From NCBI GenBank assembly GCA_965248925.1, contig CBDFLE010000006.1:1344001-1408000 (forward strand): 64,000 nt of DNA, written 5' to 3'. A program made the translations under genes and the position numbers. Numbering within the stretch: position 1 is the first letter of the stretch; the number at the start of each line of letters is the position of its first letter. This DNA is from Candidatus Multivoradales bacterium (lineage in GTDB: Bacteria > Acidobacteriota > Thermoanaerobaculia > Multivoradales > J023). This document shows, one piece after another, positions 1 through 36,023 of the stretch. Below the pieces are notes generated by a model. That model did not search any database and was not told the DNA's origin. It saw only the letters and a program-made list of their open reading frames with translations.

Positions 1-51
1 ACCTAGCCCTCTTCGCGAAAGGCTGAGCGGCGAGGTGCCAACCGTTTCGCA

Positions 52-77
52 GAAAGCCCGGCTGATGCCGGGCTTTC
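52..77. terminator. Rho-independent terminator-like hairpin (possibly bidirectional)
   Basis: Perfect 11-bp stem GAAAGCCCGGC-TGAT-GCCGGGCTTTC; lies between the window start and the convergent XRE gene. Confidence 0.65.
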
Positions 78-262
78 GTGCATCTGGGCTCAAGTAGCGG
101 CGTAGGATCGCCGGGTACGTGCGTCTCGGATGAGTCCATCGGCCTGCTGCGGAGGTGCCAGAAGGCGTTTCGCCGCAAGCCAACTGAAATCAGCGAGCTG
201 TATTGATCGAGCCCGGTGAGAGCCGGGTTTCCGTCTATATTGGATCAAGAGGCGCCGAAAGC

Positions 263-616
263 CTAGCGGGTCTTGGCTTCCCTAATGAGCGAGTCGACGA
301 CGTAGAGGATACGGTCCCGGTCGCTCGTCGCCAAAGCGTCGAGAGTCATCCACCGTTCGACCATTTCGCTTTGGGTGAGCAGATTGGGAACCTCCTGCTC
401 ACCCACCAAATAGTCGAGCGTCACACCAAAGACTTCGGCCATCTTCTGAGCCACCTTGATCGACGGCATCACCTCGCCTCGCTCGTAGCGCCCGATGACG
501 ACGCCCGAAGTGCCAAGCTTTTTGCCAAGCTCGTCTTGCTTCCAGCTGCGAGTCTTGCGTAGCTCAAGAACTCGCTTGCCGAACCGTGTCTTGATCGTGC
601 CGCTTTCTTGGCTCAT
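263..616 (-). CDS. XRE/HTH_3 family transcriptional regulator
   Basis: LRKTRSWKQDELGKKLGTSGVVIGRYERGEVMPS...FGVTLDYLVG is a cro/C1-type HTH. Confidence 0.9.
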   Translation of the reverse strand: MSQESGTIKTRFGKRVLELRKTRSWKQDELGKKLGTSGVVIGRYERGEVMPSIKVAQKMAEVFGVTLDYLVGEQEVPNLLTQSEMVERWMTLDALATSDRDRILYVVDSLIREAKTR

Positions 617-727
617 AGAACCTTCCAGTCCTTTCTTGTACGCCTTTTTCCGTCCTGAGTTAAATAATCATGACGAAAGAGTCCATTGACAGTTTACGGC
701 GGCCTGCACCGCCCGGAGGAGGAACCC

Positions 728-940
728 ATGATCGACCGCACTTTGACCGTCTCTAGCCTCTACCCAGCCTCATCATTCCCTTCGGGCTATCGCTCACTAC
801 GCCAGTCTCGGCGACAGCATCCGGTGCCCTTCCTGCGGCTCTCAGGCCGGTGGCTGGAATCGGCGGGATTTGAGATTGGCTCGAAGGTGCGGGTGGTGGT
901 CGAGTCGGATCGCCTGGTGGTGGAGCCAGCGGATGTCTGA
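728..940 (+). CDS. symE: SymE-family (AbrB-fold) toxin-like protein
   Basis: PFLRLSGRWLESAGFEIGSKVRVVV matches the SymE core motif; ATG 728 follows a GGAGG SD. Confidence 0.8.
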   Translation: MIDRTLTVSSLYPASSFPSGYRSLRQSRRQHPVPFLRLSGRWLESAGFEIGSKVRVVVESDRLVVEPADV

Positions 941-1154
941 ACAGAAACTTCGGGTGTCGGGCTTCTATCGCCCCGGTTGGCCGGCGCCGCCGGCTCTGGA
1001 GCGGCCATCGCCGCTCCTGCTGCTGGTGGGCTCGTGGCTGGCAGAGGCGGGATTTGCTCCTGGGGATGAGGTGCGGGTGTCGGGGCAAGATGGGCGGCTG
1101 CAGGTGGTGCGGCGAGAGCTCGACGATGAGACGCCGGCTTGGGGAGGGCGGTAG
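933..1154 (+). CDS. Second SymE-family protein
   Basis: PLLLLVGSWLAEAGFAPGDEVRVSGQDGRLQV; ATG 933 overlaps the end of the previous gene. Confidence 0.7.
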   Translation: MSEQKLRVSGFYRPGWPAPPALERPSPLLLLVGSWLAEAGFAPGDEVRVSGQDGRLQVVRRELDDETPAWGGR

Positions 1155-1156
1155 GG

Positions 1157-4100
1157 GTGAGCAGGATTCCGGAAGCGGAGGTGGAGCGGCTAAAGCGAGA
1201 GGTGTCGGTAGAGCGCCTGGCCCAGGCTCGGGGGGTGAAGCTGAAGCGGCACGGGGCAGATCTACTCGGCCTCTGTCCGTTTCACGACGACAAGGAGCCC
1301 TCTCTCGTCATTTCACCGAAGAAGAACCTGTGGCACTGCCTGGGCGCCTGCCAGGCGGGTGGCTCGGTGATCGATTGGGTGATGCGAGATCGCGGGGTGT
1401 CGTTTCGCCACGCGGTCGAGCTGCTGCGCTCGGATCTGCCGGCGGCGGCGGTCACTGAGGCGCGGCCTTCGGCGCCGGCTCTGCCTTCGCCGGTGGTGGC
1501 GGACGTCGAGGACGCGGAGCTGCTCGGCCAGGTCGTCGGCTACTACCACGAGGCTTTGAAGGAGAGCCCGGAGGCGCTGGCTTATCTGGAGAGCAGAGGG
1601 CTGAAGCACCCGGAGATGATCGAGCATTTCAGGCTTGGCTTCGCCAACCGGACGCTGGGCTATCGACTGCCATCGAAGCAGCTGAAGGCGGGTAAGGAGA
1701 TGCGGGGTCGATTGCAGAAGCTCGGCGTGCTGCGCAAGTCGGGTCATGAGCACTTCAACGGCTCGATCGTCTTTCCGGTCTTCAAGGGTGGCCGGGTGGT
1801 GGAGATCTACGGGCGCAAGATCACACTGAATCTTCGCAAGGGGACGCCCTTGCATCTCTATCTGCCGGGTCCACATCGAGGGATCTTTAATGCGGAAGCT
1901 CTGGTGGCCTCGACCGAGATCATCCTCTGCGAGTCGCTGATCGACGCTCTGACTTTCTGGTGTGCGGGTTACCGTAACGTCACCAGCGCCTACGGCATCC
2001 AGGGTTTCACCGCGGAGATGCTGGCAGCCTTCGGTGGCCACGGAGTCGAGCGGGTGCTGATCGCCTACGACCGTGACGATGCCGGCGAGAAGGCCGCCGG
2101 GAAGCTGGCCGAGAAGCTGGTGGGTGCCGGGATCGACTGCTACCGAATCCAATTTCCGCGTGGCATGGACGCCAACGAGTACGCGCTGAAGGTGACCCCG
2201 GCGGCGAAGTCGCTGGGGGTGGTGATCCGCAAAGCACAGTGGCTCGGCAAAGGCAAGCCGCCGGGCGTGAAACCGGGGTTTGGGCCAACAGCTGGCCTAA
2301 TCGCGCCAACGGTACGGCCAAACACAGCCGCAGAGGCGGTAATGGCTCCACCAACAGAGCAGCTGACATCATCGAATACCGCCGGAGAGGCGGTATTGGC
2401 ACTGCCCGCCCCGGCCGAAGCCTCCCCACTGCCCGCACCGCCTCCGCCAGATATGCCGGCTGAGGTGCGCGACCAGGAGGTGGTCTTGTCGCTCGGCGAT
2501 CGCCGCTACCGCATTCGCGGTCTGCCGAAGAATCTGGCCTACGACGTGCTCAAGGTCAACGTCCTGGCGTCGCGGGGCGACGCCTTCCACGTCGACACTT
2601 TCGATCTCTACGCGGCGCGGCCGCGGGCGGTGTTTCAGCGGGCGGCAGCCGCTGAGCTGGGGGTCGAGGAGCAGGTGGTCAAGAAGGATCTGGGCAAGGT
2701 GCTGCTGAAGCTCGAGGAGCTGCAGGACGAGCAGATCCGCTCAGCACTCGAGCCGCAGTCGACGGCGGTGGAGCTGTCAGAGGGAGAGAAGGAAGCGGCG
2801 CTTGAGCTGCTGCGCTCACCAGATCTCTTGGTGCGCATCCTCGCGGACTTCGAGCGCTGCGGGGTGGTGGGCGAGGAAACCAACAAGCTCATGGGCTATA
2901 TGGCGGCCACCTCGCGCTTTCTGGATCGGCCTTTGGCGGTGGTGGTGCAGTCGAGCTCGGCGGCCGGCAAGTCGGCGCTGATGGATGCGGTTCTGTCGCT
3001 GATGCCGGGTGAGGAGCAAGTGAAGTACTCGGCGATGACCGGGCAATCGCTGTTCTACATGGGCGAGACGAACTTGCAGCACAAGATTCTGGCGATCGTC
3101 GAGGAGGAAGGCGCCGAGCGGGCTAGCTACGCTTTGAAGCTGCTCCAATCGGAAGGCGAGCTGACGATTGCCTCAACCGGCAAGGACGCTTCAACGGGCA
3201 AGCTGGTGACGCACGAGTACCACGTCGAAGGGCCGGTGATGATCTTCTTGACGACCACGGCAATCGACATCGATGAAGAACTGCTGAATCGGTGTCTGGT
3301 GCTGTCGGTAGACGAGGCGCGGGAGCAGACTCGGGCGATTCACCGGCTGCAGCGAGAGCGGCGAACGCTCCAGGGGCTGTTGTCGCGCACCCGACGCGAC
3401 GGGGTGATGGCATTGCACCAGAACGCGCAGCGGCTGCTGCGGCCGCTGGCGGTGGTCAATCCCTTCGCTCCCGAGCTGACCTTTCTCGATACGCAGATCA
3501 GAACCCGTCGAGACCACGAGAAGTACCTGACCCTGATCGACGTGATTGCTCTCTTGCATCAGTACCAGCGGGAGGTGAAGCGGGCGGTGGTCGACGGGCG
3601 AGAGGTGGAATACGTGGAGGTGGTGGCCACGGACATCGGGACAGCCAACCGGCTAGCGCACGAGGTATTGGGGAGATCGCTCGACGAGCTGCCGCCGCAG
3701 ACGCGGCGCCTGCTGGGGCTGATCGACGAGATGGTCAGCGAAGCCTGTGAGGCGCTGGCGATGGATCGGCCGGACTACCGTTTCAGCCGGCGGGCGGTGC
3801 GTGAGCACACCGACTGGGGTGACACACAGCTGCGGCTGCACCTGGCGCGGCTGGTGTCGATGGAGTATTTGCTGGTGCATCAAGGAGGGCGAGGCCAGAG
3901 CTTCGTCTACGAGCTGGTGATCGAGATGAGTGGCGAGGAAGACCGCCCGCAGCTGCCCGGCTTGATCGAAGTGGAGGCACTCAAATCTGCGGGTACGACG
4001 AAAAGAACGCGGGGTCTGGAAGCAACCTCGCGGGGTCAAGGGGGTGAGAACGCGGGGCCAACGCGGCCCCAACGCGGGGGGGTTGCGGGGAAGTCGCGGG

Positions 4101-4249
4101 GTGCAGTTTCCCAAGCAGAATCAAAGACTTCGGCCGGAAATCGTGGAGTTTCTGCAAAAAACGCATATAAGGGGGAGCGAGAAAATGGCCCGTCATGTCG
4201 TAAACCGGGAAGTCGTACCGGCAGCTCGGCGGCGGCCGAGGGGGCCTGA
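1157..4249 (+). CDS. DNA primase-helicase fusion (zf-CHC2 + Toprim + P-loop AAA+ ATPase + C-terminal wHTH-like region)
   Basis: CPFHDDKEPS..WHCLGAC zinc finger; Toprim ESLIDA and YDRD; Walker A SSSAAGKS, Walker B ILAIVEEE, ELLNRC Arg-finger-like motif; probable GTG start 1157. Confidence 0.88.
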   Translation: MSRIPEAEVERLKREVSVERLAQARGVKLKRHGADLLGLCPFHDDKEPSLVISPKKNLWHCLGACQAGGSVIDWVMRDRGVSFRHAVELLRSDLPAAAVTEARPSAPALPSPVVADVEDAELLGQVVGYYHEALKESPEALAYLESRGLKHPEMIEHFRLGFANRTLGYRLPSKQLKAGKEMRGRLQKLGVLRKSGHEHFNGSIVFPVFKGGRVVEIYGRKITLNLRKGTPLHLYLPGPHRGIFNAEALVASTEIILCESLIDALTFWCAGYRNVTSAYGIQGFTAEMLAAFGGHGVERVLIAYDRDDAGEKAAGKLAEKLVGAGIDCYRIQFPRGMDANEYALKVTPAAKSLGVVIRKAQWLGKGKPPGVKPGFGPTAGLIAPTVRPNTAAEAVMAPPTEQLTSSNTAGEAVLALPAPAEASPLPAPPPPDMPAEVRDQEVVLSLGDRRYRIRGLPKNLAYDVLKVNVLASRGDAFHVDTFDLYAARPRAVFQRAAAAELGVEEQVVKKDLGKVLLKLEELQDEQIRSALEPQSTAVELSEGEKEAALELLRSPDLLVRILADFERCGVVGEETNKLMGYMAATSRFLDRPLAVVVQSSSAAGKSALMDAVLSLMPGEEQVKYSAMTGQSLFYMGETNLQHKILAIVEEEGAERASYALKLLQSEGELTIASTGKDASTGKLVTHEYHVEGPVMIFLTTTAIDIDEELLNRCLVLSVDEAREQTRAIHRLQRERRTLQGLLSRTRRDGVMALHQNAQRLLRPLAVVNPFAPELTFLDTQIRTRRDHEKYLTLIDVIALLHQYQREVKRAVVDGREVEYVEVVATDIGTANRLAHEVLGRSLDELPPQTRRLLGLIDEMVSEACEALAMDRPDYRFSRRAVREHTDWGDTQLRLHLARLVSMEYLLVHQGGRGQSFVYELVIEMSGEEDRPQLPGLIEVEALKSAGTTKRTRGLEATSRGQGGENAGPTRPQRGGVAGKSRGAVSQAESKTSAGNRGVSAKNAYKGERENGPSCRKPGSRTGSSAAAEGA
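4008..4101 (+). repeat. Helically phased (C/T)GCGGGG repeats, iteron-like
   Basis: Copies start at 4008, 4029, 4051, 4062 (partial), 4073, 4084 and 4095, giving an 11-bp period. Confidence 0.65.
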
Positions 4250-5322
4250 TGCCGCGCCGTGGCGAGCGCAAGATCCGCCTCTTGCCGGGCAATCCAACCG
4301 ACCCTCGGGGTTTCGCGGTGATGGCGGGTCAGTACCTGGAGTGGATGGCGATCAAGAACTACTCCCCACGAACCGTTGAGAACCGGCATCTATACCTCTC
4401 GTTTCTCATCGCATGGTGTGAAGAGCGTGGAGTGTCGCGGCCGTCGGACGTGACCAAGCCGATTTTGGAACGCTACGCCAGGTGGCTCTACCACTACCGC
4501 AAGCCCGAGGATGGGCGGCCGCTGTCTTTCCGGGCTCAGCACTCGCGGCTGGTGCCGGTAAGGGCCTTCTTCAAATGGGCGGCTCGGGCCAACCACCTGC
4601 TCTACAACCCGGCCTCGGAGCTGGAGCTACCGAAGCTGGAGCACCGGCTGCCGGCGGCGGTGCTGACCGCCTCTGAAGCCGACCAGGTGCTCAACCAGCC
4701 CGACACCACGGAGCCGCTCGGGATGCGCGACCGAACAATCCTTGAAGTCTTCTACTCCACGGGCATGCGCCGGGCTGAGCTGATCGGCCTCGGCCGTTAC
4801 GATCTCGACATCGAGCGCGGGACGGTGATGGTGCGCCAGGGCAAGGGGCGGAAAGACTGGATGATCCCGATCGGCGAGCGGGCGTTGGCCTGGATCGATC
4901 GCTACGTCACTGCGGTACGGCCGTCGCTGGTGGTCGAGCCGGACGGCGGGCCGCTCTTTCTCACCAACCAGGGGACGCCGTTTGCGCCGTCGCGAATGAC
5001 TCAGCTGGTGCGCGGCTACGTGCTCGCCGCCGATCTCGGCAAGTCGGGCGCTTGCCATCTCTTCCGCCACACGATGGCGACGCTGATGCTCGAAGGCGGC
5101 GCGGATATCCGCTTCATTCAGCAGATGCTCGGCCATGCCAAGCTGGAGACAACGCAGATCTACACTCAGGTATCGATCCGCAAACTGAAGTCGATCCACT
5201 CGGCAACCCATCCAGGGGCGAAGCTGGGGCGGCGGGTGGCACCGCCGACAGAAGAAGACGGCAGCGATGAAGTGACCGCCGAGGACTTACTCGATGTAGT
5301 CGAGACCGAGGCGGAGGACTGA
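4249..5322 (+). CDS. XerC/XerD-like site-specific tyrosine recombinase
   Basis: SAM-like N-terminus; catalytic R (TGMRRAEL), K (GKG), H-x-x-R (HLFRH), LGH and Y (TQIYT) intact; start overlaps the primase stop. Confidence 0.93.
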   Translation: MPRRGERKIRLLPGNPTDPRGFAVMAGQYLEWMAIKNYSPRTVENRHLYLSFLIAWCEERGVSRPSDVTKPILERYARWLYHYRKPEDGRPLSFRAQHSRLVPVRAFFKWAARANHLLYNPASELELPKLEHRLPAAVLTASEADQVLNQPDTTEPLGMRDRTILEVFYSTGMRRAELIGLGRYDLDIERGTVMVRQGKGRKDWMIPIGERALAWIDRYVTAVRPSLVVEPDGGPLFLTNQGTPFAPSRMTQLVRGYVLAADLGKSGACHLFRHTMATLMLEGGADIRFIQQMLGHAKLETTQIYTQVSIRKLKSIHSATHPGAKLGRRVAPPTEEDGSDEVTAEDLLDVVETEAED

Positions 5323-5867
5323 CCCCCGCCCGCCACCCGAAGCGGTCCGGGTCTGCGCGTCCCGCGCTGCGGCCGGCTGCGCCGTCCTCCGCTCGCGGGC
5401 CACGCAGCCCTCGGCGGTGTTTGTTTTGTCACCCCTGCCCGCCCCGGCCCGAGCATCTGCGATCCACCACCTGAGCCCTCCGATCACCGGCCCGGCGCGG
5501 GGCTTCAAGTAGTCCAAGAGAAGACTCTTCGAAAGCTCACCCCAAGCTCCGCCGGGGCGAGCACGTTGGTGGCCGTCGAAGGTCAGCGGCTTCGGAAGCA
5601 CGCCCCGCTCTTGGCCTCCTTGCCGAGATCCACCGACTTGCACTGCGACGGCTCGGCCCGGCCCCGTCCGCCCCCTCAAGGGGGCTCCCCATCCTCCTCC
5701 CAAGACCCGCCCTGCGTCGTGGCCTCCGTACCCTGCGCGCGGCGCCCTGCGGTCGCCGTGCTCGGCTCCGGCCCCGCCGCCACCACGCCCCCAACGTGCA
5801 GATTGGTTTGGCGGCTGCGCCGCCGGCACCAAACTGCCGGAAAGACCCGCGCTCGCTCCGACGACCA

Positions 5868-5926
5868 GCCCGACGAAAACGACCTAAGAAAACACCCACT
5901 GCCCGAAGAAAGCGGCCTAAGAAAAC
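5868..5926 (+). repeat. 26-bp imperfect direct repeat, 33-bp period
   Basis: GCCCGACGAAAACGACCTAAGAAAAC (5868-5893) vs GCCCGAAGAAAGCGGCCTAAGAAAAC (5901-5926), 23/26 identical. Confidence 0.7.
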
Positions 5927-6007
5927 CGCATCTCGCCTCCGCACCAACCACCCTTCCTCCTTTAGCCGCTGTCTTCGAGCGCCACCCGCGGCGTAGAATG
6001 GCCCGGC

Positions 6008-7087
6008 ATGAGGCAGGCAGCTAAAGGAAGAAGCACTTGGACGATGGCGCTCGGGCTGGTCGTCGCGCTCCTGGCGGTGACGATGCCGGCAACAGCGATC
6101 GCGCCGATCTCCGAGTCGAGCTACGCCGAAACTCGCCTCTGGACCTTCGAGCACCAAGACCCCGCCGGCAGTAGGGCCGAGCGAGGCTTAAGTAGAACAG
6201 GCATAGAGGGTTACCAGCTCTCAAGCTGGAAACCGCGTCGGGCTGTCCCCTTCACCCGAGGGGGTCAGCAGGTGGCGTTGCACAACTACTTTCCCTTTGG
6301 TCAAGAGGCGACCAGCGCGGAGGCTGACGAGATTCAGCTGAAGTTCACCGGGCATGAGCGGGACAAGACCGGGACCGGCAGCCGCTCCGAGCTGGACTAC
6401 ATGCACGCTCGGCATTGCAGCCCGGTGCTGGGGCGGTTCTTGAGTGTCGATCCGGCGAAGTCCGCCAAGCCCAGCGCGCCGGGAAGCTGGAACCGCTATT
6501 CCTATGCGGGAAACAACCCGATCAACGAGATCGACCCCAATGGGCGAGAAAGCCGTGCGGCGATGGCTCTCGAACAAGATATACAGCGCTTGATGCGGGG
6601 CGAGATCACCCAGGAGCAGTACATTGAGAACATCAATGCTCGGGGAATGGGAGCACTGTTTGCTGCCAGCCTTCTCTCGCCAGTCGACGAGACGACTCTT
6701 GTTGTCGCTGTTACTCGAAAAGCACTTCCTAGTGTTGGGTCAAAGCTGTCTGCTGTCTTTGCTCGACTTGGTAAGGTCTTTCAACGGGGATCGCGCGGAG
6801 GAGCAAGGGGGAGAGGTGCCCTCTCGAAACTAAAGATAGACCCCCAAACAGTACTGTCTGGCGGCCGAGGCGGAGGTAAGGTGAAGTCTCTTATTGGGCC
6901 TCCGAACGCTGCCGTTCGCGGTGGTGGACAACGGGTTTTCGTGACCAACGATAAGGGGCAAGTCATTCTCGACATCACGAAGAATCGAGTAAAGCCGGTG
7001 ACTCCAGGACAGGGTTTCGGGCCGAAGAGGGCCCCAACGAAAGAGGAGCTGGGCATCTTGCAGCAAATGCTGGGAAGTGGGTCATGA
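6008..7087 (+). CDS. Short Rhs-core polymorphic toxin with signal-peptide-like N-terminus and C-terminal toxin domain
   Basis: YFPFG, KFTGHERD, LDYMHAR, GRFLSVDP and NRYSYAGNNPINEIDPNG form the Rhs-associated core; variable C-terminus follows; no YD-repeat shell. Confidence 0.85.
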   Translation: MRQAAKGRSTWTMALGLVVALLAVTMPATAIAPISESSYAETRLWTFEHQDPAGSRAERGLSRTGIEGYQLSSWKPRRAVPFTRGGQQVALHNYFPFGQEATSAEADEIQLKFTGHERDKTGTGSRSELDYMHARHCSPVLGRFLSVDPAKSAKPSAPGSWNRYSYAGNNPINEIDPNGRESRAAMALEQDIQRLMRGEITQEQYIENINARGMGALFAASLLSPVDETTLVVAVTRKALPSVGSKLSAVFARLGKVFQRGSRGGARGRGALSKLKIDPQTVLSGGRGGGKVKSLIGPPNAAVRGGGQRVFVTNDKGQVILDITKNRVKPVTPGQGFGPKRAPTKEELGILQQMLGSGS

Positions 7088-7557
7088 CAGTTGCTTCCGT
7101 GTTGCTGAACTTCAGGCACGCGCTGATTGTTCTAGTGCCTTCGGTAGAGCGCGCAGGCATTCCCTGGAAGCGCCCAGACGCATACGATGAGTGGGACGCC
7201 ATCGCTTCGACACTCTTCGACGAGCTAGTCGTGAAGGTACTCCGGTGGTCGTTACCCCACGACAAACAAGAAGAATTCCGCATGTCCCCTTACGATTTGG
7301 TACTTGCAAGTTACACAGACCACAGCACCTTGGAGGTGACTCATCCATGCTTACGATCAGGCCGCTGGCTGTTTCATGCATTCGGAACGATGAGCGAGCC
7401 CTTCGACACCGTTGAGGTGCGCGAAGTATCTGCGAGTGGTCTGCCCCTTGGCGAGAACCTCGCGACCTGTCCGGTGACTGGTGCCAGCTTTTGTCTCAGG
7501 CTCCGCCGAGGGCTCGAGGATTCAAGGGTTTTGGATGAGGTAGTGATGTTCAACTGA
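7084..7557 (+). CDS. Putative cognate immunity protein
   Basis: 157 aa with ATGA overlap on the toxin stop; position typical of Rhs immunity genes. Confidence 0.7.
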   Translation: MTVASVLLNFRHALIVLVPSVERAGIPWKRPDAYDEWDAIASTLFDELVVKVLRWSLPHDKQEEFRMSPYDLVLASYTDHSTLEVTHPCLRSGRWLFHAFGTMSEPFDTVEVREVSASGLPLGENLATCPVTGASFCLRLRRGLEDSRVLDEVVMFN

Positions 7558-7560
7558 TAA

Positions 7561-7821
7561 CATCATGGAGCAAGGGGGACAGCGGCTAGAGCTAGGGTTC
7601 GCACTGCGCCACAAGATCTCTCAGAGAAGCTAGCGCTCGATGAAGCGGGAGCTGGAGCGGGCTGCCGGATCATGCAAGGGAAGATCAGAGATCCGAGGAT
7701 CCCGGAAAACATGTAGGCGAAGATGGAACATGTCCTCAAGAATCCAGACGGAACCCAGACGGTCATCCACTACTGGAAGAACTTGGAAACGTGCGTTCGC
7801 CAAGGCTTTAAGTTCAAATGA
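7561..7821 (+). pseudogene. Orphan toxin C-terminal domain with internal TAG
   Basis: Frame reads GARG...APQDLSEKLALDEAGAGAGCRIMQGKIRDPRIPENM*AKMEHVLKNPDGTQTVIHYWKNLETCVRQGFKFK*; no start at its 5' end; stop overlaps the next ATG. Confidence 0.65.
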
Positions 7822-8201
7822 AGGCAGTGAACCTCGAGCTTGTGGCGGCCAAGGCGATGCTTGGGTTGTTGCTGCCGGAGGATCTTCAGGGCGCTGCCGT
7901 GGATGCACTGGAAGAGGGTTGCGATTCGCCCTCACTGAGGATCCTCGCAGGACTGACCAAGGCGGAGGTCGGCGAAGCTCGCCAGCTCTTTGATCGACTT
8001 CTCGCTGAACTTCACGTACCAAAGACCAGTCGGAGGGGAGCCGTGGAACGGCTTGCGAGAGAGAGCGCAAAGGAAATCCTGAGCAGGAAGATTTGGCTCT
8101 CCTCAAATAGGAGTGGGTGGATTTCGCCACACTTGCTGCCGGCCGCCCATAGACGGGCGAGGCCGGCCGGCAGCAAGCATAGCGAAATGATGAGGCTGTA
8201 A
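7818..8201 (+). CDS. Putative immunity protein of the orphan toxin (3' end probably disrupted)
   Basis: ATGA coupling to the orphan toxin stop; helical N-terminal part (DSPSLRILAGL); ORF ends in the probable ISL3 terminus. Confidence 0.55.
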   Translation: MKAVNLELVAAKAMLGLLLPEDLQGAAVDALEEGCDSPSLRILAGLTKAEVGEARQLFDRLLAELHVPKTSRRGAVERLARESAKEILSRKIWLSSNRSGWISPHLLPAAHRRARPAGSKHSEMMRL

Positions 8202-8420
8202 GTAGTTGCCTGCACCGACGGAATCCGACCACCGATTCCGATTGAAAGTGACCAGTGATTCCAACGGAATCTGACCATCGATTCCGATCGAAAGTGACCA
8301 CTTTTCCGGGTCGATCGGAATGGGTGGTCAGATTGGATCGGAATCCTGGCCACGGCGGAGTTCGACGGTAGCGCGCTCCTCACAATTGGGGTATTCCAGC
8401 CTCCTTGAAAGGAGGATTGG

Positions 8421-9995
8421 ATGCCGAGAGTGAGGACATCGATGCGCAAGATACGCGAGGTACTGAGACTGAAATGGCAGCATGGCCTGTCGCACCGCCA
8501 GATCGGACGGTCGGTTCGGCTGGGCCACGGGACGGTGTGCAGCTACCTGCTGCGAGCCAAGGTTGAAGGCCTGAGCTGGGAGCAAGTAGCAGCTTTGAGC
8601 GACGCTGAGCTGGAGCAACGCCTGTACCCTCGGCCGCAGCCGCTTCGGAGGGGTGGTCAGCGAGCCTTGCCCGACTGGACCAAGGTGCATGGCGAGCTGA
8701 AGAAGAAGGGCGTAACCCTGTCGCTGCTGTGGCAAGAGTACCGGGAGGACCATCCCGACGGCTACGGTCTCAGCCGCTTCTGTCAGCTGTACCGGATCTG
8801 GGAAGGGCGCCTGGATGTGTGCCTGCGCCAAGCCTACCGGGCGGGCGAGAAGCTGTTCGTCGACTACGCCGGACAGACCGTGAGGGTGATCGACCCGGCG
8901 ACTGGCAAAGCGCGCGAAGCGCAGATCTTCGTGGCGGTGCTGGGGGCGAGCAATTACACCTATGCCGAAGCAACGTGGAGCCAGGGCCTGGAGGACTGGA
9001 TCGGCTCTCATGTGCGGACCTTCGCGGCTCTGGGCGGGGTGAGCGAGCTGGTGGTGCCGGACAATCTGAAGAGCGGCGTGACCAGCCCGTGCCGCTACGA
9101 GCCGGAGATCAATCGCACCTACGCGGAGTTGGCCGAGCACTACGGCGTGGCGGTGGTGCCGGCGCGGGTGAGGAAGCCCCAAGACAAGGCGAAGGTCGAA
9201 AACGGTGTATTGCAAGTGGAGCGCTGGATTCTGGCCCGGCTGCGTAACCAGCAGTTCTTCAGCCTGCGAGAGCTCAACGAGAGCATCGCGAAGCTTCTGG
9301 TCGAGCTTAACGACCGTCCGCTGAAGGTGTTGGGCGTCTCGCGCCGAGCGCTGTTCGAGCAGGTCGATCGTCCTGCTCTGGGTGCTTTGCCGCTCCAGCC
9401 CTACGAGCTTGCCGAATGGAAGAAGGTACGCGTTGCCCCGGACTACCACGTCGAGTTCGAGGGCCACTATTACAGTGTGCCGTACCAGCTGATCAAGAAG
9501 CAGCTCGATCTGCGGGCGACGGCGCAACTGGTGGAGGTGCTCGATCGCGGCAAGCGTGTGGCTGCTCATCGTCGCAATCGGTGTCGGGGTCGGCACACGA
9601 CCCAGAGCGAGCACATGCCCAAAGCGCACCAGGCGTACCTGGAGTGGACACCGACACGGCTGATCAGCTGGGCGGCGAAAACAGGCCAGGCGACGGCCGA
9701 ACTGGTGGAGACCATCATGCTTAACCGCTCCCATCCTCAGCACGGCTTTCGCTCGTGTCTGGGGCTGATGCGCCTGGGCAAGACCTATGGTGCCAATCGT
9801 TTGGAGGCTGCGTGCCGCCGCGCGCTCGCCATTCACGGCCTGTCCTACAAGAGCGTGAAGTCGATCCTGAAGAGCGGCCTGGACCAGCAAGCAACGCCCG
9901 AGCCCACCGAAGTGACGGCGCCGATCGAGCACCGCAACGTCCGCGGCGCCAGCTACTACAGTGCCGCGCGCCGCGAGGAGACGCCGCCATGCTGA
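8421..9995 (+). CDS. istA: IS21 transposase IstA
   Basis: N-terminal HTH; DDE motifs FVDYAG, VPDNLK and KAKVENGV. Confidence 0.95.
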   Translation: MPRVRTSMRKIREVLRLKWQHGLSHRQIGRSVRLGHGTVCSYLLRAKVEGLSWEQVAALSDAELEQRLYPRPQPLRRGGQRALPDWTKVHGELKKKGVTLSLLWQEYREDHPDGYGLSRFCQLYRIWEGRLDVCLRQAYRAGEKLFVDYAGQTVRVIDPATGKAREAQIFVAVLGASNYTYAEATWSQGLEDWIGSHVRTFAALGGVSELVVPDNLKSGVTSPCRYEPEINRTYAELAEHYGVAVVPARVRKPQDKAKVENGVLQVERWILARLRNQQFFSLRELNESIAKLLVELNDRPLKVLGVSRRALFEQVDRPALGALPLQPYELAEWKKVRVAPDYHVEFEGHYYSVPYQLIKKQLDLRATAQLVEVLDRGKRVAAHRRNRCRGRHTTQSEHMPKAHQAYLEWTPTRLISWAAKTGQATAELVETIMLNRSHPQHGFRSCLGLMRLGKTYGANRLEAACRRALAIHGLSYKSVKSILKSGLDQQATPEPTEVTAPIEHRNVRGASYYSAARREETPPC

Positions 9996-10753
9996 GGCAC
10001 GCGACGCTCGATCAACTCGCCGCGCTCAAGCTCCACGGTATGGCCAAAGCCTTTGAGGAGCAGCTGTTGATGGTCGATGTCTCAGAGCTCTCCTTCGAAG
10101 AGCGCCTCGGGCTGCTGGTCGAGCGCGAAGCGACCGAGCGATCCAGCCGCCGCTTGATAGCGCGGTTGCGAAAAGCCAAGCTGCGCGAGCAGGCGGCCAT
10201 CGAAGACATCGACTGGCGAGCCAAGAGGGGCCTGGACAAAGGCCAGATCCTGCGCCTGGCCTCGTGCCAGTGGATCGCCGAGCATCTCAACGTGCTGATC
10301 ACCGGCAAGGCCGGGGTGGGCAAGACCTTTCTCGCCTGCGCCTTCGCGCACAAGGCATGTCGGGAGGGTTACACCGCTTTGTACCTGCGGGTGCCGAGGC
10401 TGTTTCGCCAGCTCGCCATCGCGCGGGGTGATGGTAGCTACGAGAAGCTGCTCAAGAGCTATGCTCGCACAGACCTGCTCATCCTCGACGACTGGGGGCT
10501 GGCGCCGATCGGGGCCAGCGAGCGGCGCGACCTGCTCGAGATTCTTGAGGACCGCTACGGCAACCGCTCCACGCTGGTGACCTCCCAGCTACCGGTTGAG
10601 AGCTGGTACGAGGTCATCGGCGATCCGACCTTGGCCGACGCCATCCTCGATCGCATTGTCCACGGCGCCTACAAGCTCGCGGTGGACGGTGACTCCATGC
10701 GGGCGAAGAGAGCCGGCGGTATTCGCAAGGCCGCCCAGCGAGAGGCAAGGTGA
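9989..10753 (+). CDS. istB: IS21 helper ATPase IstB
   Basis: GKAGVGKT Walker A, LILDDWG Walker B, ADAILDRIVH; ATG at 9989. Confidence 0.95.
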   Translation: MLRHATLDQLAALKLHGMAKAFEEQLLMVDVSELSFEERLGLLVEREATERSSRRLIARLRKAKLREQAAIEDIDWRAKRGLDKGQILRLASCQWIAEHLNVLITGKAGVGKTFLACAFAHKACREGYTALYLRVPRLFRQLAIARGDGSYEKLLKSYARTDLLILDDWGLAPIGASERRDLLEILEDRYGNRSTLVTSQLPVESWYEVIGDPTLADAILDRIVHGAYKLAVDGDSMRAKRAGGIRKAAQREAR

Positions 10754-12506: not shown

Positions 12507-13083
12507 TCAATCGCCGGGAATGGCCGGCAGGGTGACGGTGCCGGGTTTTTCGAGAGCGGCCCGAGTCGCCTTGAGCAGGTACGCGTAGGGCTCATCGCCG
12601 GCAAGCTTGGCGCTCTCGGTGAGGCTGTAGAGGATCGCCGCGACCTCGGTTCCCCGCTTGGAGCGCGACCCGTAGTGGTTCTTGCGTCCGATGACGACGC
12701 CTCGCAGCTCCCGCTCTGCAAGGTTGTTGTCGAGGGGAATTAGGGGGTTTTCAAGAAAACGCGTTAGCCCTTTCCAATGGCCGAGCAGGTAGTTGACTGC
12801 CTTGCCCAATCCGCTGCGCGGCAGGGCTACGGGTCTGGTCTCCATAGCCCAAGCTTGCAGCTTTTTGAGAATGGGCCCGGAGTGCTCGGCGCGCAGCTTC
12901 AGGCGCAGATCCAGAAGCTCTTGCGGCTCCGGAACTTGGATAGCCGGTACCTTCCGCTCCACTTTGAAAAGATCGCTGATCATGTCCAGCGCTTGACCAC
13001 AGTGTTTTGGGTAGTTGTGCTCTGCGTCGGCGAATTTTCTTCGTGCGTGTGCCCAGCAGTGGGCCAGTGTGAATCCAGGACCG
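12507..13083 (-). pseudogene. tnpC: IS66 transposase TnpC, C-terminal fragment
   Basis: LAHCWAHARRKF and DNNLAERELRGVVIGRKN motifs. Confidence 0.88.
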
Positions 13084-13161
13084 CGGAATGTGTCAATGAG
13101 AATGAGACACTTTCTTCTGGGAATTAGTACGGAATCCAGAACTCCTGACATACCCTTTTTC

Positions 13162-15555
13162 TCAAATGTCCGGTTGAGCCTCTCCGGAGGTGTTCCGAGG
13201 CCCTGGGAAGGCCAGGCTCCGGGGTGGCGCCTTCTTGATCGCGAACCGCATCCGTAGCTCGGTGCCGGGGAAGTGGGTGGCGGTAGCGTTGAGTTCTTCG
13301 CAGACGGCGGCGATCGCCGCCGTCTTGTGGGGAGAGCTGAGCGGGTCGATGGAAAGGAGCAGCACGGTGTCGGTAACCTCCATATCGCCGCCGGCCGCGA
13401 AAGCGCTTTGGATCAGGGTGCGTCCCTCCTGCTCGGTGCGGCGGTAGTGGGGTGATAGGAGCCGGAGAAGATCACCTTCGGCCTGGTAGGCGACCATCTT
13501 GAGAATATCGGTGAGGTGCTTGCGCTCGACGGACAGCTTGATGACATCCGCTTCGACGACCTCTTGGACGGGGACGCGGACGGGGAGGGTCGCGCGCTGG
13601 TTCTCGAGTTCGGTGATCTGCTCTATCGCTGCCCGGACCCTGGCGGAGATGGCGGCGTTGGCGATCTTGAATCCGCGCATCGTGCGCCGCCGATCCTCGC
13701 GGTTTTCAAGAGCAGCGATCCCGATGTGGGCCCGGAGCTGCTCGAGATGTGCGTGAGCTTTGCGCAGCTCTGCATTGATCTTGCCGCGCTCGGGATTCGG
13801 CACATCGCGGGCGGCGTCCGCTGGCTCGGTGCCATAGTCCACCAGGGCATCGAGTGCGAATTCTTCGCGCAGGTATTTGAAGAAGTTCTCTTGCCTCCAA
13901 CGATCGAACATGCGGTAGGCGACCTCGAGTGTGGAGAGGTCGCGGCGGGAGGTGATGATGGACGTCTGGTGGCCGTTGTCGCAGAGGCGGGTGACCTGGC
14001 GCAGGTACAGCCGCTTGCGCTTCTTCCTCGGGCCATACTCGAGGTAGATACGCTGATCGGCGAGGAGGTACTCGAGCTTCCGCCCGTGGATCGTGTCCTT
14101 GATCTGCCCGAACTTGCTCAACGGCACCGGACGAAAGGGGGCCTTTCGGTATGTGAGGATGTCGAACTTCTTGGCGATGAGCTTCGCAAACAGCTTCGGG
14201 CTCCAACCCCCACGGTCGAAGACGACGGTGACTCGCCGGTCTCCGAGTAGCTTTCGTACCTCTTCGAGAATGAGGGGAAGCATCGTCGCAAGCCCCTTGT
14301 TGGCCTCGGTGGGAACCACGAAGAGAGGCTCGCTCTCAGCATCGTTGACCCAGTAGTCGGTGGTGGCCGGCATCGCGATCCGCATCCGCGCTACGTGTGT
14401 CTTGGGAATCTCTCGGCCACCGTGGTAGGCGCGCACATGCCCGTCCACGTAGAGGAAGCCCATGGCATGGCCCCTGGTGGCGACCCGGCGCTGAGCGAGG
14501 GCGCGACCGAGATCCGCGGCCAGGCCATGCGCGGCCAGCCGAGCGAGCTTGTTGCGCAAGGTTTTCACTTCCGGCGCTCGGTCGAGCCCGAGAAGCTGAC
14601 CCAAATGCCGGGGTGAGCGCTCCTTGAGCCCTTCGGGTCGCTTGACCCGCAACAGTGCCATCAGCAGCAGGGTTACCAGAGTGGTGCGCAGCCCATAGAA
14701 GGCCGGCCCGATGCTGCCGTACAGCTCCTGCGCGATGGAGAGCACGCCGCTGTCCACCAGGGCGGGAATCGCCAGCAGAGCACCGGCGCCCGGTAGCTGG
14801 GTCGCCGCTCCGAAGATCGGCGCCGCATCATCGAGGAATCCCAGCCTCGCCAGCAGCCGATCGCTGGCGCGATCCGCTGGATCGAGGTCCAGCGAGAGGG
14901 GAACCTGATCTTGCTCGGACGCAGAAGCGGACAGTTTTGGGTCCGCAGCCGCTGGGTCACCGCCACCCTCAGCGTCGAGCGCAAGATCCGCAGTTTTCAG
15001 GGGGCCGTCGACCTGCTGCTCATCAGAGCCGGACAGTTTTGGGTCCGCACTCTCGAAGGGCATCGTCATCTGCACTACCGACCGCTCTTTCCAGCCCAGG
15101 CGCTTGGCGAGCTTGCGAACGGCCTTCTCATCGATGCCCAGCCGCCGGCCAATCTCGCGATTCGACACACCCTCGGCCTTCCAGCCGTTGACCGCGTCCA
15201 GGCGGCCCTGCGCTACCCGAGACTGACCCCGGGGAAAACCGCGCGGCCGGCCCAGAGCAGCCAGCCCACCTTCTTCGAAGCGGCGCTGATTCCGGCGCAC
15301 AGTCCGCACATCACAAGCGAACGCAAGGGCCACCTCGCGTTGCTGTGCCCAGCCCAATTCAACGAGACTCACCATCGCGTGGGCCTCGCCTGTCCTGTCG
15401 CCGGCAGCGAAGTGAGCGAGCGGCATGCCGCTGACCACCACCACCCGATAGCCGCCCCTCTGCTGGAGGCGGCAGCGGTCGTTGATCACCACAACCCCAT
15501 CGGGGACCCCGGCGTGGTCTGGGAACAGGACGGTGTGCTCGCTCGTCAGTGCCAT
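13162..15555 (-). CDS. Large putative DDE transposase with two N-terminal HTH motifs
   Basis: YVDGH, FDRGG and RWRQENFFK (IS4-superfamily-like) motifs; bounded by IRs. Confidence 0.8.
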   Translation of the reverse strand: MALTSEHTVLFPDHAGVPDGVVVINDRCRLQQRGGYRVVVVSGMPLAHFAAGDRTGEAHAMVSLVELGWAQQREVALAFACDVRTVRRNQRRFEEGGLAALGRPRGFPRGQSRVAQGRLDAVNGWKAEGVSNREIGRRLGIDEKAVRKLAKRLGWKERSVVQMTMPFESADPKLSGSDEQQVDGPLKTADLALDAEGGGDPAAADPKLSASASEQDQVPLSLDLDPADRASDRLLARLGFLDDAAPIFGAATQLPGAGALLAIPALVDSGVLSIAQELYGSIGPAFYGLRTTLVTLLLMALLRVKRPEGLKERSPRHLGQLLGLDRAPEVKTLRNKLARLAAHGLAADLGRALAQRRVATRGHAMGFLYVDGHVRAYHGGREIPKTHVARMRIAMPATTDYWVNDAESEPLFVVPTEANKGLATMLPLILEEVRKLLGDRRVTVVFDRGGWSPKLFAKLIAKKFDILTYRKAPFRPVPLSKFGQIKDTIHGRKLEYLLADQRIYLEYGPRKKRKRLYLRQVTRLCDNGHQTSIITSRRDLSTLEVAYRMFDRWRQENFFKYLREEFALDALVDYGTEPADAARDVPNPERGKINAELRKAHAHLEQLRAHIGIAALENREDRRRTMRGFKIANAAISARVRAAIEQITELENQRATLPVRVPVQEVVEADVIKLSVERKHLTDILKMVAYQAEGDLLRLLSPHYRRTEQEGRTLIQSAFAAGGDMEVTDTVLLLSIDPLSSPHKTAAIAAVCEELNATATHFPGTELRMRFAIKKAPPRSLAFPGPRNTSGEAQPDI

Positions 15556-15604
15556 GCTCGATCATGCCTCGGCACCGAAAAAAGCGGACAGTTTTGGGTC
15601 CGCA
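14928..15604. repeat. Three perfect copies of CGGACAGTTTTGGGTCCGCA
   Basis: Copies at 14928-14947, 15030-15049 and 15585-15604. Confidence 0.85.
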
Positions 15605-15639
15605 CCACCTCTGAGGGGCGGTCCTGTGTTTTCAGAGGG

Positions 15640-16779
15640 TTAGGAGGGGTAGGTCAGGAGGTCTGGAATCGGTAGTGGCTCCGGCACCATCGCTTTCAAC
15701 GAGGGCGCGCAGGCAGGTGTCTCGCCTGGTGCGTCGTCGTCTACGCGGTGTGTCACCTCGTTCTCGGTATCGGCTGGGTCAGTGCTGGTGGTGGTGATCG
15801 GCGGGTTGATCCAGACCTCGCCACTGGGCTCCGGCAAAGCCGGCGTTCGCCGCTTGAAGCGGCTCGGATGAGCGGCTGAGGCGGCGGCGAGGACTTCTCG
15901 ACGTTGCTCCAGCACTGAGGCCGTGAGGCCGTAGTGGACGGTCTCTGGCGTCAACAAACCGAGTCCTGTGTGGTAGTGCTGCGTGTTGTACCAGCCGAGG
16001 AACGAGCGGCAGAACGCTCGTGCATCTTCCAGTGATCCGAAGCGGTCGGGAAAGCTCGGATGGTACTTGAGCGTCTTGAACTGGGCCTCAGAGAACGGAT
16101 TGTCGTTGCTCGTGTAGGGCCGGTTCAGCGACCGTGTCATCCCGAGATCGGCCAGCAGTAGAGCCACTGGCTTGGATGTCATGCTCGAACCGCGGTCCGA
16201 GTGCAAGGTAAGTCGATCTCGCTCAACACCTTGCTTCTCAACACTGTCGGCGATCAACCGCTTCGCGAGTCCTCCGGACTCGCGGGAGGCGAGCATCCAG
16301 CCGACGATGTAGCGGCTGAAGACGTCCAGAATTACGTAAAGGTAGTAGTAGGTCCACTTCACCGGGCCCTTGAGCTTGGTGATGTCCCACGACCACACCT
16401 CGTTCGGCCCTGTGGCCAGCAGTTCGGGCTTGGTGTAGTTGGGATGACGCCGCTGACGGCGTCGCTCGCGCAGCTCGCCCTCAGACTCCAGGACCCGGTA
16501 CATGGTGCGCACCGAGCAGATATGGCGCTGGTCCTCGTCCAGCAGCGCCGCCCAGACTTGACGCGGCGAGCGGTCGACGAAGCGCTCCGAGTGCAACACA
16601 TCGAGGACCTCCTGGCGTTCAGCGGGCGTCAATGCCAGCGGCGGTCGACGCCGCGTCAATAGTCTCGGCCCTGCGCTCTGCTGCCGACGGCGGCGATAGA
16701 AAGTGGCTCTGGGGACCGCCAAGGCGACGCAGGCTGCTTGCACCCCCACCGTCAATGCCAGCGGCGCCACAGCGCTCAT
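15640..16779 (-). CDS. IS3 family transposase OrfB (rve integrase core)
   Basis: WSWDITK, LHSDRGS and NDNPFSEAQFKTLK DDE motifs. Confidence 0.92.
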   Translation of the reverse strand: MSAVAPLALTVGVQAACVALAVPRATFYRRRRQQSAGPRLLTRRRPPLALTPAERQEVLDVLHSERFVDRSPRQVWAALLDEDQRHICSVRTMYRVLESEGELRERRRQRRHPNYTKPELLATGPNEVWSWDITKLKGPVKWTYYYLYVILDVFSRYIVGWMLASRESGGLAKRLIADSVEKQGVERDRLTLHSDRGSSMTSKPVALLLADLGMTRSLNRPYTSNDNPFSEAQFKTLKYHPSFPDRFGSLEDARAFCRSFLGWYNTQHYHTGLGLLTPETVHYGLTASVLEQRREVLAAASAAHPSRFKRRTPALPEPSGEVWINPPITTTSTDPADTENEVTHRVDDDAPGETPACAPSLKAMVPEPLPIPDLLTYPS

Positions 16780-17188
16780 GACTGGCTCTCGCTCGGCTCG
16801 ATCCCTAGCAGTCGGGAAAGTTTTTTTTGGACATCGATGATCGTCTCGGCTTTGTACAGCTGATGCTTGAGCCGGGCAATCTCACGCTCAAGCTCCGCGA
16901 CGCGGCGGGCCTCAGCAGAGACCGACCGACGCTTACGACCGCGCTTCTTCGACAAACCGGCCAGAGCACTGGCATCGCGTTGTTGGCGCCAATTCGATAG
17001 TAGAGATGAATACAGACCCTCCCGGCGAAGCAGGGCGCCAATCTCGCCGGGCTTGCTACACGCGTCGGCGGCCTGGACGATGCTCAGCTTGTACGACGCG
17101 CTGTACCGCCGCCGCTTCGCCTTCTCAGTTACCTCGGGATCTGGTCGGTCAGCACTCATATCTCGCAGCTCGTGGCTTGGACTCGCCA
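16776..17188 (-). CDS. IS3 family OrfA (HTH + leucine zipper); -1 frameshift to OrfB likely
   Basis: RRRYSASYKLSIV..LRREGLYSS..WR; A8 run (16821-16828) whose -1 frame is open into orfB; start uncertain. Confidence 0.85.
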
Positions 17189-17258
17189 TGGTGTTTGCTC
17201 TCCACGCCCTCACTAATTTATCGGTACGGGAGTGTCTCACTTACATTGGCACAGAGGG

Positions 17259-18220: not shown

Positions 18221-18241
18221 GCGTCTATTATAGATCAGAAA

Positions 18242-25821: not shown

Positions 25822-25881
25822 CTTCGGCCACCTTGTCGCCCTGGTTGCCATCATCGTCACCTCGGTTGCCAGCAACCTGGT

Positions 25882-25907
25882 CGACAAACATCGCAACCTG
25901 AGCAACA
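25882..25907 (+). promoter_or_regulatory. Candidate AraC-domain operator, copy 1
   Basis: CGACAAACATCGCAACCTGAGCAACA; 21/26 identical to 41257-41282; flanked by 21-bp-period repeats. Confidence 0.55.
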
Positions 25908-26005
25908 GACCCACCGCGCGCACTTCTTTACCCTCGACTCGACCACGGTAGCGACCCTGGCTTGATTGACGAGCTGGGATCATCTCGGCCGGCTTGAGAG
26001 CAAGG

Positions 26006-35997: not shown

Positions 35998-36023
35998 TCT
36001 TCCTGCCGGCGCGTGAGATCGAT

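Follow-up and report, generated by a model that had tools for sequence, protein, structure and literature searches.

In the C-terminal displacement model of Jackson et al. 2009 (PMC2935791), as set out in the accessible part of that paper, a new tip enters a full-length rhs gene by recombination in the core, through a hypothetical circular intermediate, and displaces the old tip, so that the full-length gene is followed by core-fragment/tip orphans. The same arrangement was found in a stretch of 64,000 nucleotides (C6:1344001-1408000; hereafter the window) of the genome of Candidatus Multivoradales bacterium (7.98 Mb, 62% GC, six contigs, among them C4, C5 and C6). Here, however, the incoming and displaced tips bracket a primase-helicase/recombinase replicon, whereas the model, in the accessible part, comes without a vehicle. 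The backbone of this element consists of genes for an XRE regulator, a primase/MCM-like helicase and a XerC-type recombinase, joined in this genome by two SymE-like genes, and rhs-core sequence is present on both sides. We consider it probable (roughly 0.6) that the region represents one copy of an integrative, plasmid-like replicon, which lives in toxin loci and carries polymorphic-toxin tips.

Other described systems combine a tyrosine recombinase with toxin-related genes. In Bacteroidales, rAID pairs such a recombinase with arrays of orphan immunity genes (10.1101/2025.05.03.651265), and XerC/D genes adjoin polyimmunity loci (Zhang et al. 2012, PMC3482391). Both resemble the present locus in having a tyrosine recombinase beside arrays of toxin-related cassettes and conserved intergenic motifs, but the accessible parts of these two sources describe one recombinase with short immunity genes, and in those parts no primase/helicase, repressor or repetition of the recombinase in each unit is described. 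SymE genes in the Rhs/contact-dependent growth inhibition (CDI) clusters of Erwinia and Proteus have been published, as far as the accessible text goes, as separate toxin-antitoxin modules. Two further papers were considered and set aside: the accessible text of one on mcr-10/xerC (PMC9431528) shows no link to the primase of the window, and none is claimed; that of an atlas of Ralstonia type VI secretion systems (PMC11481896) presents an unclassified eight-gene element with a Toprim protein and lipase clusters, which is not evidently the same element. No description of a primase-XerC element in Rhs/CDI loci was found in the full-text literature, subscription journals and supplements lying outside the search.

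Three groups of mobile elements also offer comparisons. Satellites of the P4/phage-inducible chromosomal island (PICI) type are small integrative elements with a repressor, a primase/helicase and a tyrosine recombinase. This core is present in the window, but no genes for interaction with a phage (capsid redirection, packaging or helper sensing) were found in its first 19 kb and no tRNA gene anywhere in it; moreover, the target is the coding sequence of a toxin gene, and relatives carry ParAB or plasmid addiction genes. A PHROG scan returned only generic regulator, primase and integrase families. Integrative plasmids and episomes enter the chromosome by homologous recombination, and CTX-phi/RS1 arrays carry heteroimmune RstR alleles. 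The element shares with these the Campbell-type single crossover, the stacking in tandem and a divergent repressor whose alleles differ greatly (the XRE regulator scored 75 bits against the RstR model, cut-off 80), but it recombines through homology in the conserved 3' portion of a polymorphic toxin gene, with the result that integration rewrites the tip, and it has its own Xer-like enzyme, with no dif site used as far as seen. Tycheposons of marine cyanobacteria combine a tyrosine recombinase with a replicative module and cargo and pile up in tandem at tRNA genes in a site-specific manner. The element likewise has a recombinase, a replicative module and cargo and is stacked in tandem at a conserved target gene, but it targets rhs/cdiA loci and its crossovers lie in long homology.

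The full-length rhs gene at this locus (C6:1338441-1343477, a 1678-aa frame ending 0.5 kb before the window) encodes an N-terminal signal peptide, an RHS_repeat match and the Rhs core, and has its own tip and a 179-aa immunity candidate. Because the open reading frame (ORF) of this partner ends at window base 6, the element sits between a working rhs tip/immunity pair and a displaced tip. The displaced tip is carried by a stub ORF, where a core fragment is joined to a tip that differs from the one on the upstream gene and is followed by a small gene, i.e. the layout of an Rhs locus with orphan tips.

The 4.4-kb primase-XerC segment recurs at 92-95% identity in the genome. In total, 14 copies were located by tblastn, in arrays of seven and three plus four singles. 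C5 holds the tandem of seven and C6 that of three; the singles are the window copy, a copy on C4 and two diverged copies, whose primases are 80-85% identical. At the head of each array stands a full-length rhs frame of 1459-1719 aa. The order within a unit is core, tip, small ORF, XRE (opposite strand), SymE, SymE, primase, XerC, spacer, and stub with core, and the same core segment of ~200 bp brackets every unit. Identity between units is 90-99% for primase and XerC, 40-100% for SymE, and 28-100% for XRE, of which several very different alleles occur among copies that are otherwise ~93% identical. The left edge of the XRE block, which starts with a hairpin, lies 9-78 nt past three unrelated immunity/partner ORFs in different copies. 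The tips are modular: a linker of ~350 nt, of which a few classes exist, precedes a variable toxin part and a partner gene. Units are linked to their left-hand tip, since three copies share an identical tip-immunity-XRE-SymE-primase start over 3 kb and have different right-hand tips. Several units are exact duplicates over at least 3 kb. The XerC frame is open to an in-frame stop in 13 of the 14 copies, without internal stops (the 14th extraction ended ahead of the stop codon), and its ratio of non-synonymous to synonymous substitution rates (dN/dS) against the window copy is 0.04-0.18 in 11 same-length pairs.

One primase gene of the C5 array is split by a copy of an IS21-family insertion sequence (IS) at C5:977236-980138. 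Genome-wide, 85 matches to Rhs cores were counted, an unusually large Rhs arsenal, and rhs frames of 3,300-5,100 aa are present on C4 and C5. Classic orphan arrays without the element also occur, e.g. seven cores at C6:2440003-2457561. The paralogous rhs locus at C6:1739319 was considered as an empty site for the C4 copy and was uninformative because its toxin/immunity cassettes differ from those of that copy.

Occupied and empty sites were compared in two other taxa. On the megaplasmid of Ralstonia solanacearum Po82, an rhs gene (1725-aa ORF) is followed in turn by XRE, primase, XerC, a mini-stub and a 475-aa rhs orphan. In strain IBSBF1503, both flanks are 99.5-99.8% identical to those of Po82 and the middle is absent; the extra DNA of Po82 comprises an 8,880-bp insert and a second copy of a 1,079-bp rhs segment. 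In a three-way comparison aligned with MAFFT, the empty-site alleles are found in the full-length rhs copy of Po82 at 8 columns, up to position 7899; from 7968 as far as the tip junction they are found in the orphan copy, at 54 columns that include 9 edge gaps. No column is contrary, and two are private to the empty strain. The crossover falls at positions 7900-7967 of this locus (L123), ~920-985 bp upstream of the tip junction. The full-length frame of Po82 is intact and bears the new tip, while the old tip is on the orphan. The alignment shows a single reciprocal crossover, in which the resident rhs recombined with a circle that carried a fragment of rhs, the new tip and the backbone; this is the outcome predicted by the model as given in the accessible part of PMC2935791.

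With the Salmonella primase as DNA query, the element was detected in 60 of the 5,426 complete genomes of Escherichia coli, always in the chromosome and at a median of four places per genome, and a DNA search with the locus of strain MP1 retrieved many further strains with primase, xerC and RHS annotations. The MP1 locus reads VgrG, DcrB-like, Rhs, small ORF, SymE, helix-turn-helix (HTH) protein, primase, XerC, two small ORFs, SymE, HTH, primase, XerC, Rhs fragment; R12, another strain, shows this protein set with a single unit. The two strains differ by 6,810 bp, on either side of which lies a copy of a 1-kb repeat (copies 94% identical) that extends from just past xerC to the end of the mini-stub. 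The alleles of R12 change from those of copy 1 to those of copy 2 a single time, between positions 18250 and 18316 of the MP1 locus (L129), with 55 copy-1 columns before the switch and 141 copy-2 columns after it in the interior; the outer edges of the alignment hold 5 copy-2-type columns and one three-way column. This pattern shows the gain or loss of one unit by a single crossover. The Ralstonia and E. coli events both fit ordinary homologous recombination, and neither crossover is at a conserved motif. Both resolvable crossovers lie in long homology and not at a fixed attachment (att) site. In the mini-stub after the first XerC of MP1 (L129 18980-19110), a G run shifts the frame between ...DDPIGLAGG and ...NLYQYAPNPLGWIDPLGL, so that the orphan tip there is out of frame with the stub.

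The primase belongs to a very large family (at least 8000 candidates at E ≤ 0.001, mostly on metagenome contigs of 4-20 kb). In the same phylum, 17 of 301 genomes have a primase match at E ≤ 1e-30, and 13 loci were fetched from 10 of these 17. A co-oriented Rhs core was found with an iterated hidden Markov model (HMM) in 12 of the 13, the exception (L040) being a 7-kb contig, and NCBIfam TIGR03696 was confirmed in 5 of 10 downstream ORFs submitted from these loci. The more distant phylum relatives (L032-L043) have two tandem Xer paralogues and no SymE. The cross-phylum sample consisted of the best 78 loci of 554 relatives from a profile scan of GTDB species genomes; they represent Acidobacteriota, Beta- and Gammaproteobacteria, Myxococcota, Planctomycetota, Nitrospirota, Riflebacteria, Desulfobacterota and Bacteroidia, and the identity of their primases is 55-65%. 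A core HMM seeded with the cores of this genome and iterated on the loci detected an Rhs core in 58 of the 78 loci, giving 100 matches on the primase strand and 0 on the opposite strand. Where the flank was long enough, 25 of 33 loci have a core ≤4.5 kb upstream, and 25 of 31 have one ≤3 kb past XerC. The background, taken from the very Rhs-rich genome of the window, is 85 core matches in 7.98 Mb. XerC follows the primase in 72 of 75 loci, and tandem units are present in at least 8 of the 78.

Relatives of the element also occur on plasmids, the primase matching 40 plasmid records in PLSDB. The 'plasmid unnamed1' of Lonsdalea populi N-5-1, a circular record of 11,289 bp, contains two units, one of them degenerate, with genes for XerC, primase, HTH, SymE, a nuclease tip with NTF2-fold immunity, an HNH tip (in the degenerate unit) and RelE/DinJ; both tips open with the mini-stub ...DDPIG...NYGYVHNP..W.DPFGLA. 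In Leptospira plasmids, HTH, primase and recombinase genes are followed directly by ParA and ParB, and a Salmonella IncF plasmid carries HTH, primase, XerC and ParDE. On P. aeruginosa pPA1609-475, a tandem backbone lies behind a CdiA-like TpsA2 gene and its partner and is followed by a C39-peptidase tip; the host locus is thus not restricted to Rhs. In the three gammaproteobacterial plasmid copies (Lonsdalea, Salmonella and P. aeruginosa), a RelE/ParE-type toxin-antitoxin pair lies directly 3' of xerC, where only the spacer is found in the genome of the window. Primase copies at ~49% identity are also present on three Enterobacter plasmids and one Providencia plasmid. Of 50 whole metagenome contigs, six overlap exactly at their ends by 63-129 nt, which gives a unit length of 7.0-8.6 kb, and in a seventh (L109) the first 500 nt are repeated at an offset of 9,294 bp.

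On the preferred reading, two core repeats would recombine to release a circle with one core copy, one tip/immunity pair and the backbone, and the circle would be maintained by its own primase-helicase, as the free plasmid relatives suggest. Through a single reciprocal crossover of the kind shown in Ralstonia and E. coli, it could then enter any rhs that shares the core sequence. The incoming tip would be fused in frame to the resident Rhs shell, and the old tip with its immunity gene pushed downstream behind a stub, as shown by the Ralstonia pair; repeated rounds would build tandem arrays such as those observed in this genome. The recombinase and a conserved DNA block beside the stub probably serve circle formation or multimer resolution and not the choice of target, the divergent XRE alleles are probably element-specific switches, and the SymE or RelE/ParE genes are probably addiction modules.

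Features of the window copy are listed in Table 1.

Table 1. Features at the left end of the window (positions counted from the first base of the window).
Feature	Position	Strand	Remarks
Immunity-candidate ORF, 179 aa, last codons	1-6	+	Offset 617-1156 past the core of the upstream full-length rhs
Conserved element block, left edge	23-262		Homology to other copies begins abruptly at 23
Hairpin AAAGCCCGGC-tgat-GCCGGGCTTT	53-76		Between convergent genes
XRE/HTH_3 regulator	263-616	-	Pfam 6.7e-15; divergent from operon
SymE-like (AbrB-fold) small protein 1	686-940	+	SymE_toxin 2.3e-15
SymE-like small protein 2	870-1154	+	SymE_toxin 6.6e-8; overlaps SymE-like ORF 1
Primase/MCM-like helicase, 1036 aa	1139-4249	+	CHC2, DnaG core, Toprim; PF27228; winged-helix part
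XerC-type tyrosine recombinase	4249-5322	+	Start overlaps primase stop; PF00589 3.7e-36
GC-rich spacer, 685 bp	5323-6007		Indels between copies
Stub-tip ORF, 359 aa	6008-7087	+	Signal-peptide-like N-terminus; Rhs core aa 82-180; TIGR03696 Rhs_assc_core aa 94-179 (7e-18)
Conserved DNA block before Rhs-homologous part	6083-6262	+	Inside stub ORF here; same position across phyla
R1, GAAACTCGCCTCTGGA	6128-6143	+	Within conserved block, inside stub ORF
rhs-core segment, ~200 bp	6252-6453	+	95% identical to upstream full-length rhs; common to all other units
Candidate immunity gene, 157 aa	7084-7557	+	Overlaps stub-tip stop; family scans without match
Small ORF	7818-8201	+	3' end like sequence adjoining other IS copies
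IS21-family insertion sequence	8207-10753	+	IstA 8421-9995, IstB 9755-10753; bounds locus

An earlier note on this DNA, made from the sequence alone, had described a repressor divergent from an operon of two SymE-like genes, a primase-AAA+ helicase and an intact tyrosine recombinase, followed by a structured spacer and stacked toxin/immunity units including Rhs, with no capsid, relaxase or conjugation genes. ORFs and family scans bear out the gene string and its divergent orientation. The recombinase scored 429 bits against the NCBI XerC subfamily NF002331 (cut-off 371) and contains the catalytic residues R-K-H-R-H-Y, in agreement with the note; the other Xer-like genes of the genome are 27-36% identical to it. 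No capsid, relaxase or conjugation gene was found within 19 kb either, the locus being followed there only by the IS21 transposase genes and those of an IS66 element. A structured spacer found no support: the predicted RNA fold had z = -1.0, with 5 of 20 shuffles folding equally well, and no Rfam family matched. Of the stacked units, one stub-tip/immunity unit is clear and no second clear one was found within 263-8190. The spacer contains two 26-nt direct repeats (5868-5893 and 5901-5926). A sigma-70 promoter scan gave 0 sites, and terminator-like sites did not exceed the shuffle count.

The two SymE-like ORFs scored 56.9 and 33 bits against SymE_toxin PF08845 (cut-off 29) but, at 26 bits, fell far under the cut-off of 132 of the equivalog model for E. 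coli SymE. The first likely starts at the ATG at 728, behind GGAGGAGG. No SymR-type antisense RNA was detected, there being 0 matches to any Rfam family at E ≤ 0.1 in window positions 1-9000. In the C-terminal part of the stub-tip ORF, a linker of ~85 aa (class A) precedes a variable putative toxin domain of ~95 aa matching no family; the toxin and immunity roles of this tip and its partner are predicted, and neither matches a family model. The small ORF ahead of the IS21 element is possibly an orphan immunity gene.

Residues 1-352 of the primase-helicase comprise a CHC2 zinc finger, the DnaG core and Toprim. The second half contains PF27228, which is named MTBMA_p00010_2nd in the protein atlas, after an archaeal plasmid protein, and is annotated in 120 of 120 among the homologues listed (precomputed annotations). 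A PDB sequence search with the helicase half gave one chance match only (E 0.51). An AlphaFold2 model of residues 455-945 was built from a 28-sequence alignment (mean predicted local distance difference test, pLDDT, 81.7; predicted template modelling score, pTM, 0.68), and among the Foldseek matches listed for it, MCM2-7 and archaeal MCM chains appear throughout (best E 2.1e-9, TM 0.44; 327 at E ≤ 0.001). The modelled fold indicates that the second half is an MCM-like AAA+ helicase, and the earlier label of a primase/AAA+ helicase is therefore correct, more exactly MCM-like. With a DnaG primase, an MCM-like AAA+ fold and PF27228, the element has a putative replication initiator/helicase of its own, as a plasmid would.

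Several dozen near-identical copies of the IS21 element are present in the genome, judged from 194-nt end matches. Right of the rhs locus is the IS66 element (TnpB 18242-18919; transposase halves 17237-18220 and 12507-13151), which is interrupted by a Transposase_29 gene (13162-15555) and an rve gene (15640-16779), making window positions 12507-18919 an IS graveyard. ORFs of 1416, 3180 and 1486 aa occupy window positions 21571-41202; their size is typical of non-ribosomal peptide or polyketide synthases (NRPS/PKS) or adhesins.

Homology in the core segment stops abruptly behind ...RFLSVDP codons, ~30 codons before the DPxG motif. Across 22 unit pairs, no common interval of upstream and downstream DNA homology was found, and the left-end motif CTGAGCGGC is repeated directly at the right end at chance level (52 observed vs 46 expected). 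Because the conserved DNA block lies inside the stub ORF here, the 'signal peptide plus 81 residues' of the stub may be partly incidental. Words resembling ACTCGCGTCGGG occur in 28 of 38 XerC-to-stub spacers (12-mer search without shuffle control). The motif AAAACTCGCGTCNGGG stands 100-130 nt ahead of the detected core in most loci. At ≤1 mismatch it gave 33 matches in the 78 loci, 31 of them on the element strand ≤2.5 kb past XerC and 0 on the other strand; of the remaining two, one is pre-stub in a self-closing contig and one is 2.9 kb past XerC. Looser matches are found in the same place in the P. aeruginosa and Salmonella copies, the E. coli copies and that of a complete genome, G139. An alignment of the block shows three or four related repeats and CTAAG boxes, and RNAalifold found 0 pairs in it, i.e. 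no conserved RNA structure. Rhs-derived sequence begins at a fixed distance past the block, yet its Rhs coordinates differ between lineages. The block might function as an origin, an operator or a recombinase site.

Several observations weigh against the reading of the region as a plasmid-like, tip-carrying replicon. The downstream core is absent in 6 of 31 loci with ≥3 kb of flank and the upstream core in 8 of 33, and in the complete genome G139 (L031) the element lies behind an rhs gene with an undetectable downstream stub. Terminal overlaps of contigs can reflect either a circle or collapsed identical tandem units, the two being indistinguishable, and such tandems exist here. The short-read contigs of this genome, which come from four runs on one sample, gave no sign of a circle, an excision product or a raised copy number; depth is ~100-260 in repeated parts and ~20 in unique flanks, which fits chromosomal copy number. 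Single-nucleotide polymorphisms form a mosaic within the 200-bp core and point to no one site of exchange, and since both mapped crossovers lie in long homology and need no enzyme of the element, arrays could arise by unequal crossing-over alone. Replication by the primase-helicase is, moreover, a prediction from relatives and fold. Among the short-read contigs, a joint that goes back 8346 (13453->5108, i.e. window 6453 to the upstream rhs; three runs) starts at the exact end of the core segment, but one of its sides is only 30 letters long, so that another rhs copy may be its source; a second short-read joint (6200->7663) was dropped as it matches other genomic copies. The earlier note had inferred a satellite-like replicon that captures toxin tips. 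Its tip-carrying part gains support from the Rhs enrichment, the two occupied/empty pairs, the tip change and the circular plasmid relatives; satellite kinship does not, with only the gene trio in common and no phage genes. The association with Rhs that it expected of primase-recombinase pairs is seen in the 100:0 orientation count and in the cores on either side. Comparison with empty sites, which was to define att sites, revealed entry or exit of the unit as a block by one crossover, but no fixed att site, and the circular forms that it anticipated appear as plasmid records of relatives, not for the window's copy.

An integron-like process, in which XerC would insert and excise tip cassettes by cutting and joining within or next to the rhs core (at the R-block or the ...GRFxSxDP codons), with long-homology crossovers secondary, could account for the position of the AAAACTCGCGTCNGGG block ~100-130 nt before the stub, with 31 of 33 matches just past XerC and none on the other strand, and for its presence in E. 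coli and CdiA-linked copies; a fixed block-to-Rhs distance with variable Rhs coordinates is what would be expected of a fixed element end joined to variable targets. The ...DP codons are also the common starting point of tip cassettes in L036, Lonsdalea, E. coli and the genome of the window, the flanking homology in L036 is only ~60 bp (20 identical), and the two tandem Xer paralogues of the more distant relatives recall XerC/XerD. We nevertheless regard this process as unlikely: both mapped crossovers are about 800-950 bp from the block and the tip junction, the extent of upstream and downstream DNA homology varies without a shared interval, no inverted-repeat core site was identified, and the first motif count (28/38 spacers) lacked a shuffle control. 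The recombinase is not of the integron IntI type (TIGR02249, 100 bits against a cut-off of 265; NF011946, 71 against 435), and no attC-like structured sites were seen in the conserved block or the spacer. It also appears improbable that the element is a selfish plasmid for which rhs/cdiA is a mere landing pad, the tips being resident content without a role in toxin diversification and the arrays products of unequal crossing-over. Crossovers require homology only, addiction-type genes (SymE, RelE/ParE) travel with the element, the same genome has orphan arrays free of it, and the Leptospira and Salmonella plasmid copies have the trio without an annotated Rhs/toxin-tip gene nearby, although the Salmonella flanks are unnamed ORFs and PLSDB annotation is incomplete. 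Yet the block inserted in Ralstonia brought the tip that is now on the full-length rhs, the free Lonsdalea plasmid has two tip/immunity pairs with mini-stubs, the self-closing contigs each contain one stub and tip, and the 100:0 co-orientation fits in-frame delivery.

That the element is an accessory module fixed in rhs loci and unable to move (for example a regulator/repair or defence cassette), amplified here only as part of segmental duplications, is already disfavoured and, in our view, very improbable. The C5 and C6 arrays do share 100% identical multi-kb segments including the rhs gene, as segmental duplication predicts, and excision was not seen in the short-read contigs, but primases 55-65% identical are distributed patchily over many phyla (17/301 phylum genomes, 60/5,426 E. 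coli), near-identical strains are polymorphic for presence and absence, and plasmid-borne and free forms exist. A wider proposal built on the replicon reading is more tentative, at somewhat less than even odds. According to it, small replicons spanning phyla from Acidobacteriota to E. coli would be the missing vehicle of polymorphic-toxin evolution: self-replicating circles whose 'attachment site' is the conserved coding end of Rhs/CdiA shells, and whose entry would equip the cell with a new toxin tip, the old immunity gene being retained behind a stub supplied by the element. XerC, acting on the R-block, would make or resolve the circles, and heteroimmune XRE alleles would set which units coexist.

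The acquisition of Rhs/CdiA tips and the strings of orphans have been explained since 2009 by a hypothetical circle without known machinery. The element is a concrete candidate for this machinery, with genes for replication, recombination and regulation at the point of tip exchange and natural before/after pairs that show a tip swap. Because it is present in tractable E. coli commensals (MP1 and R12), the idea is directly testable. The element is widespread in soil, water, plant-associated and gut bacteria, and it would explain the recurrent SymE, XerC and 'DNA primase' annotations in Rhs/CDI loci, earlier taken for unrelated toxin-antitoxin genes, as well as the breakage of metagenome assemblies at such loci into contigs of 5-8 kb.

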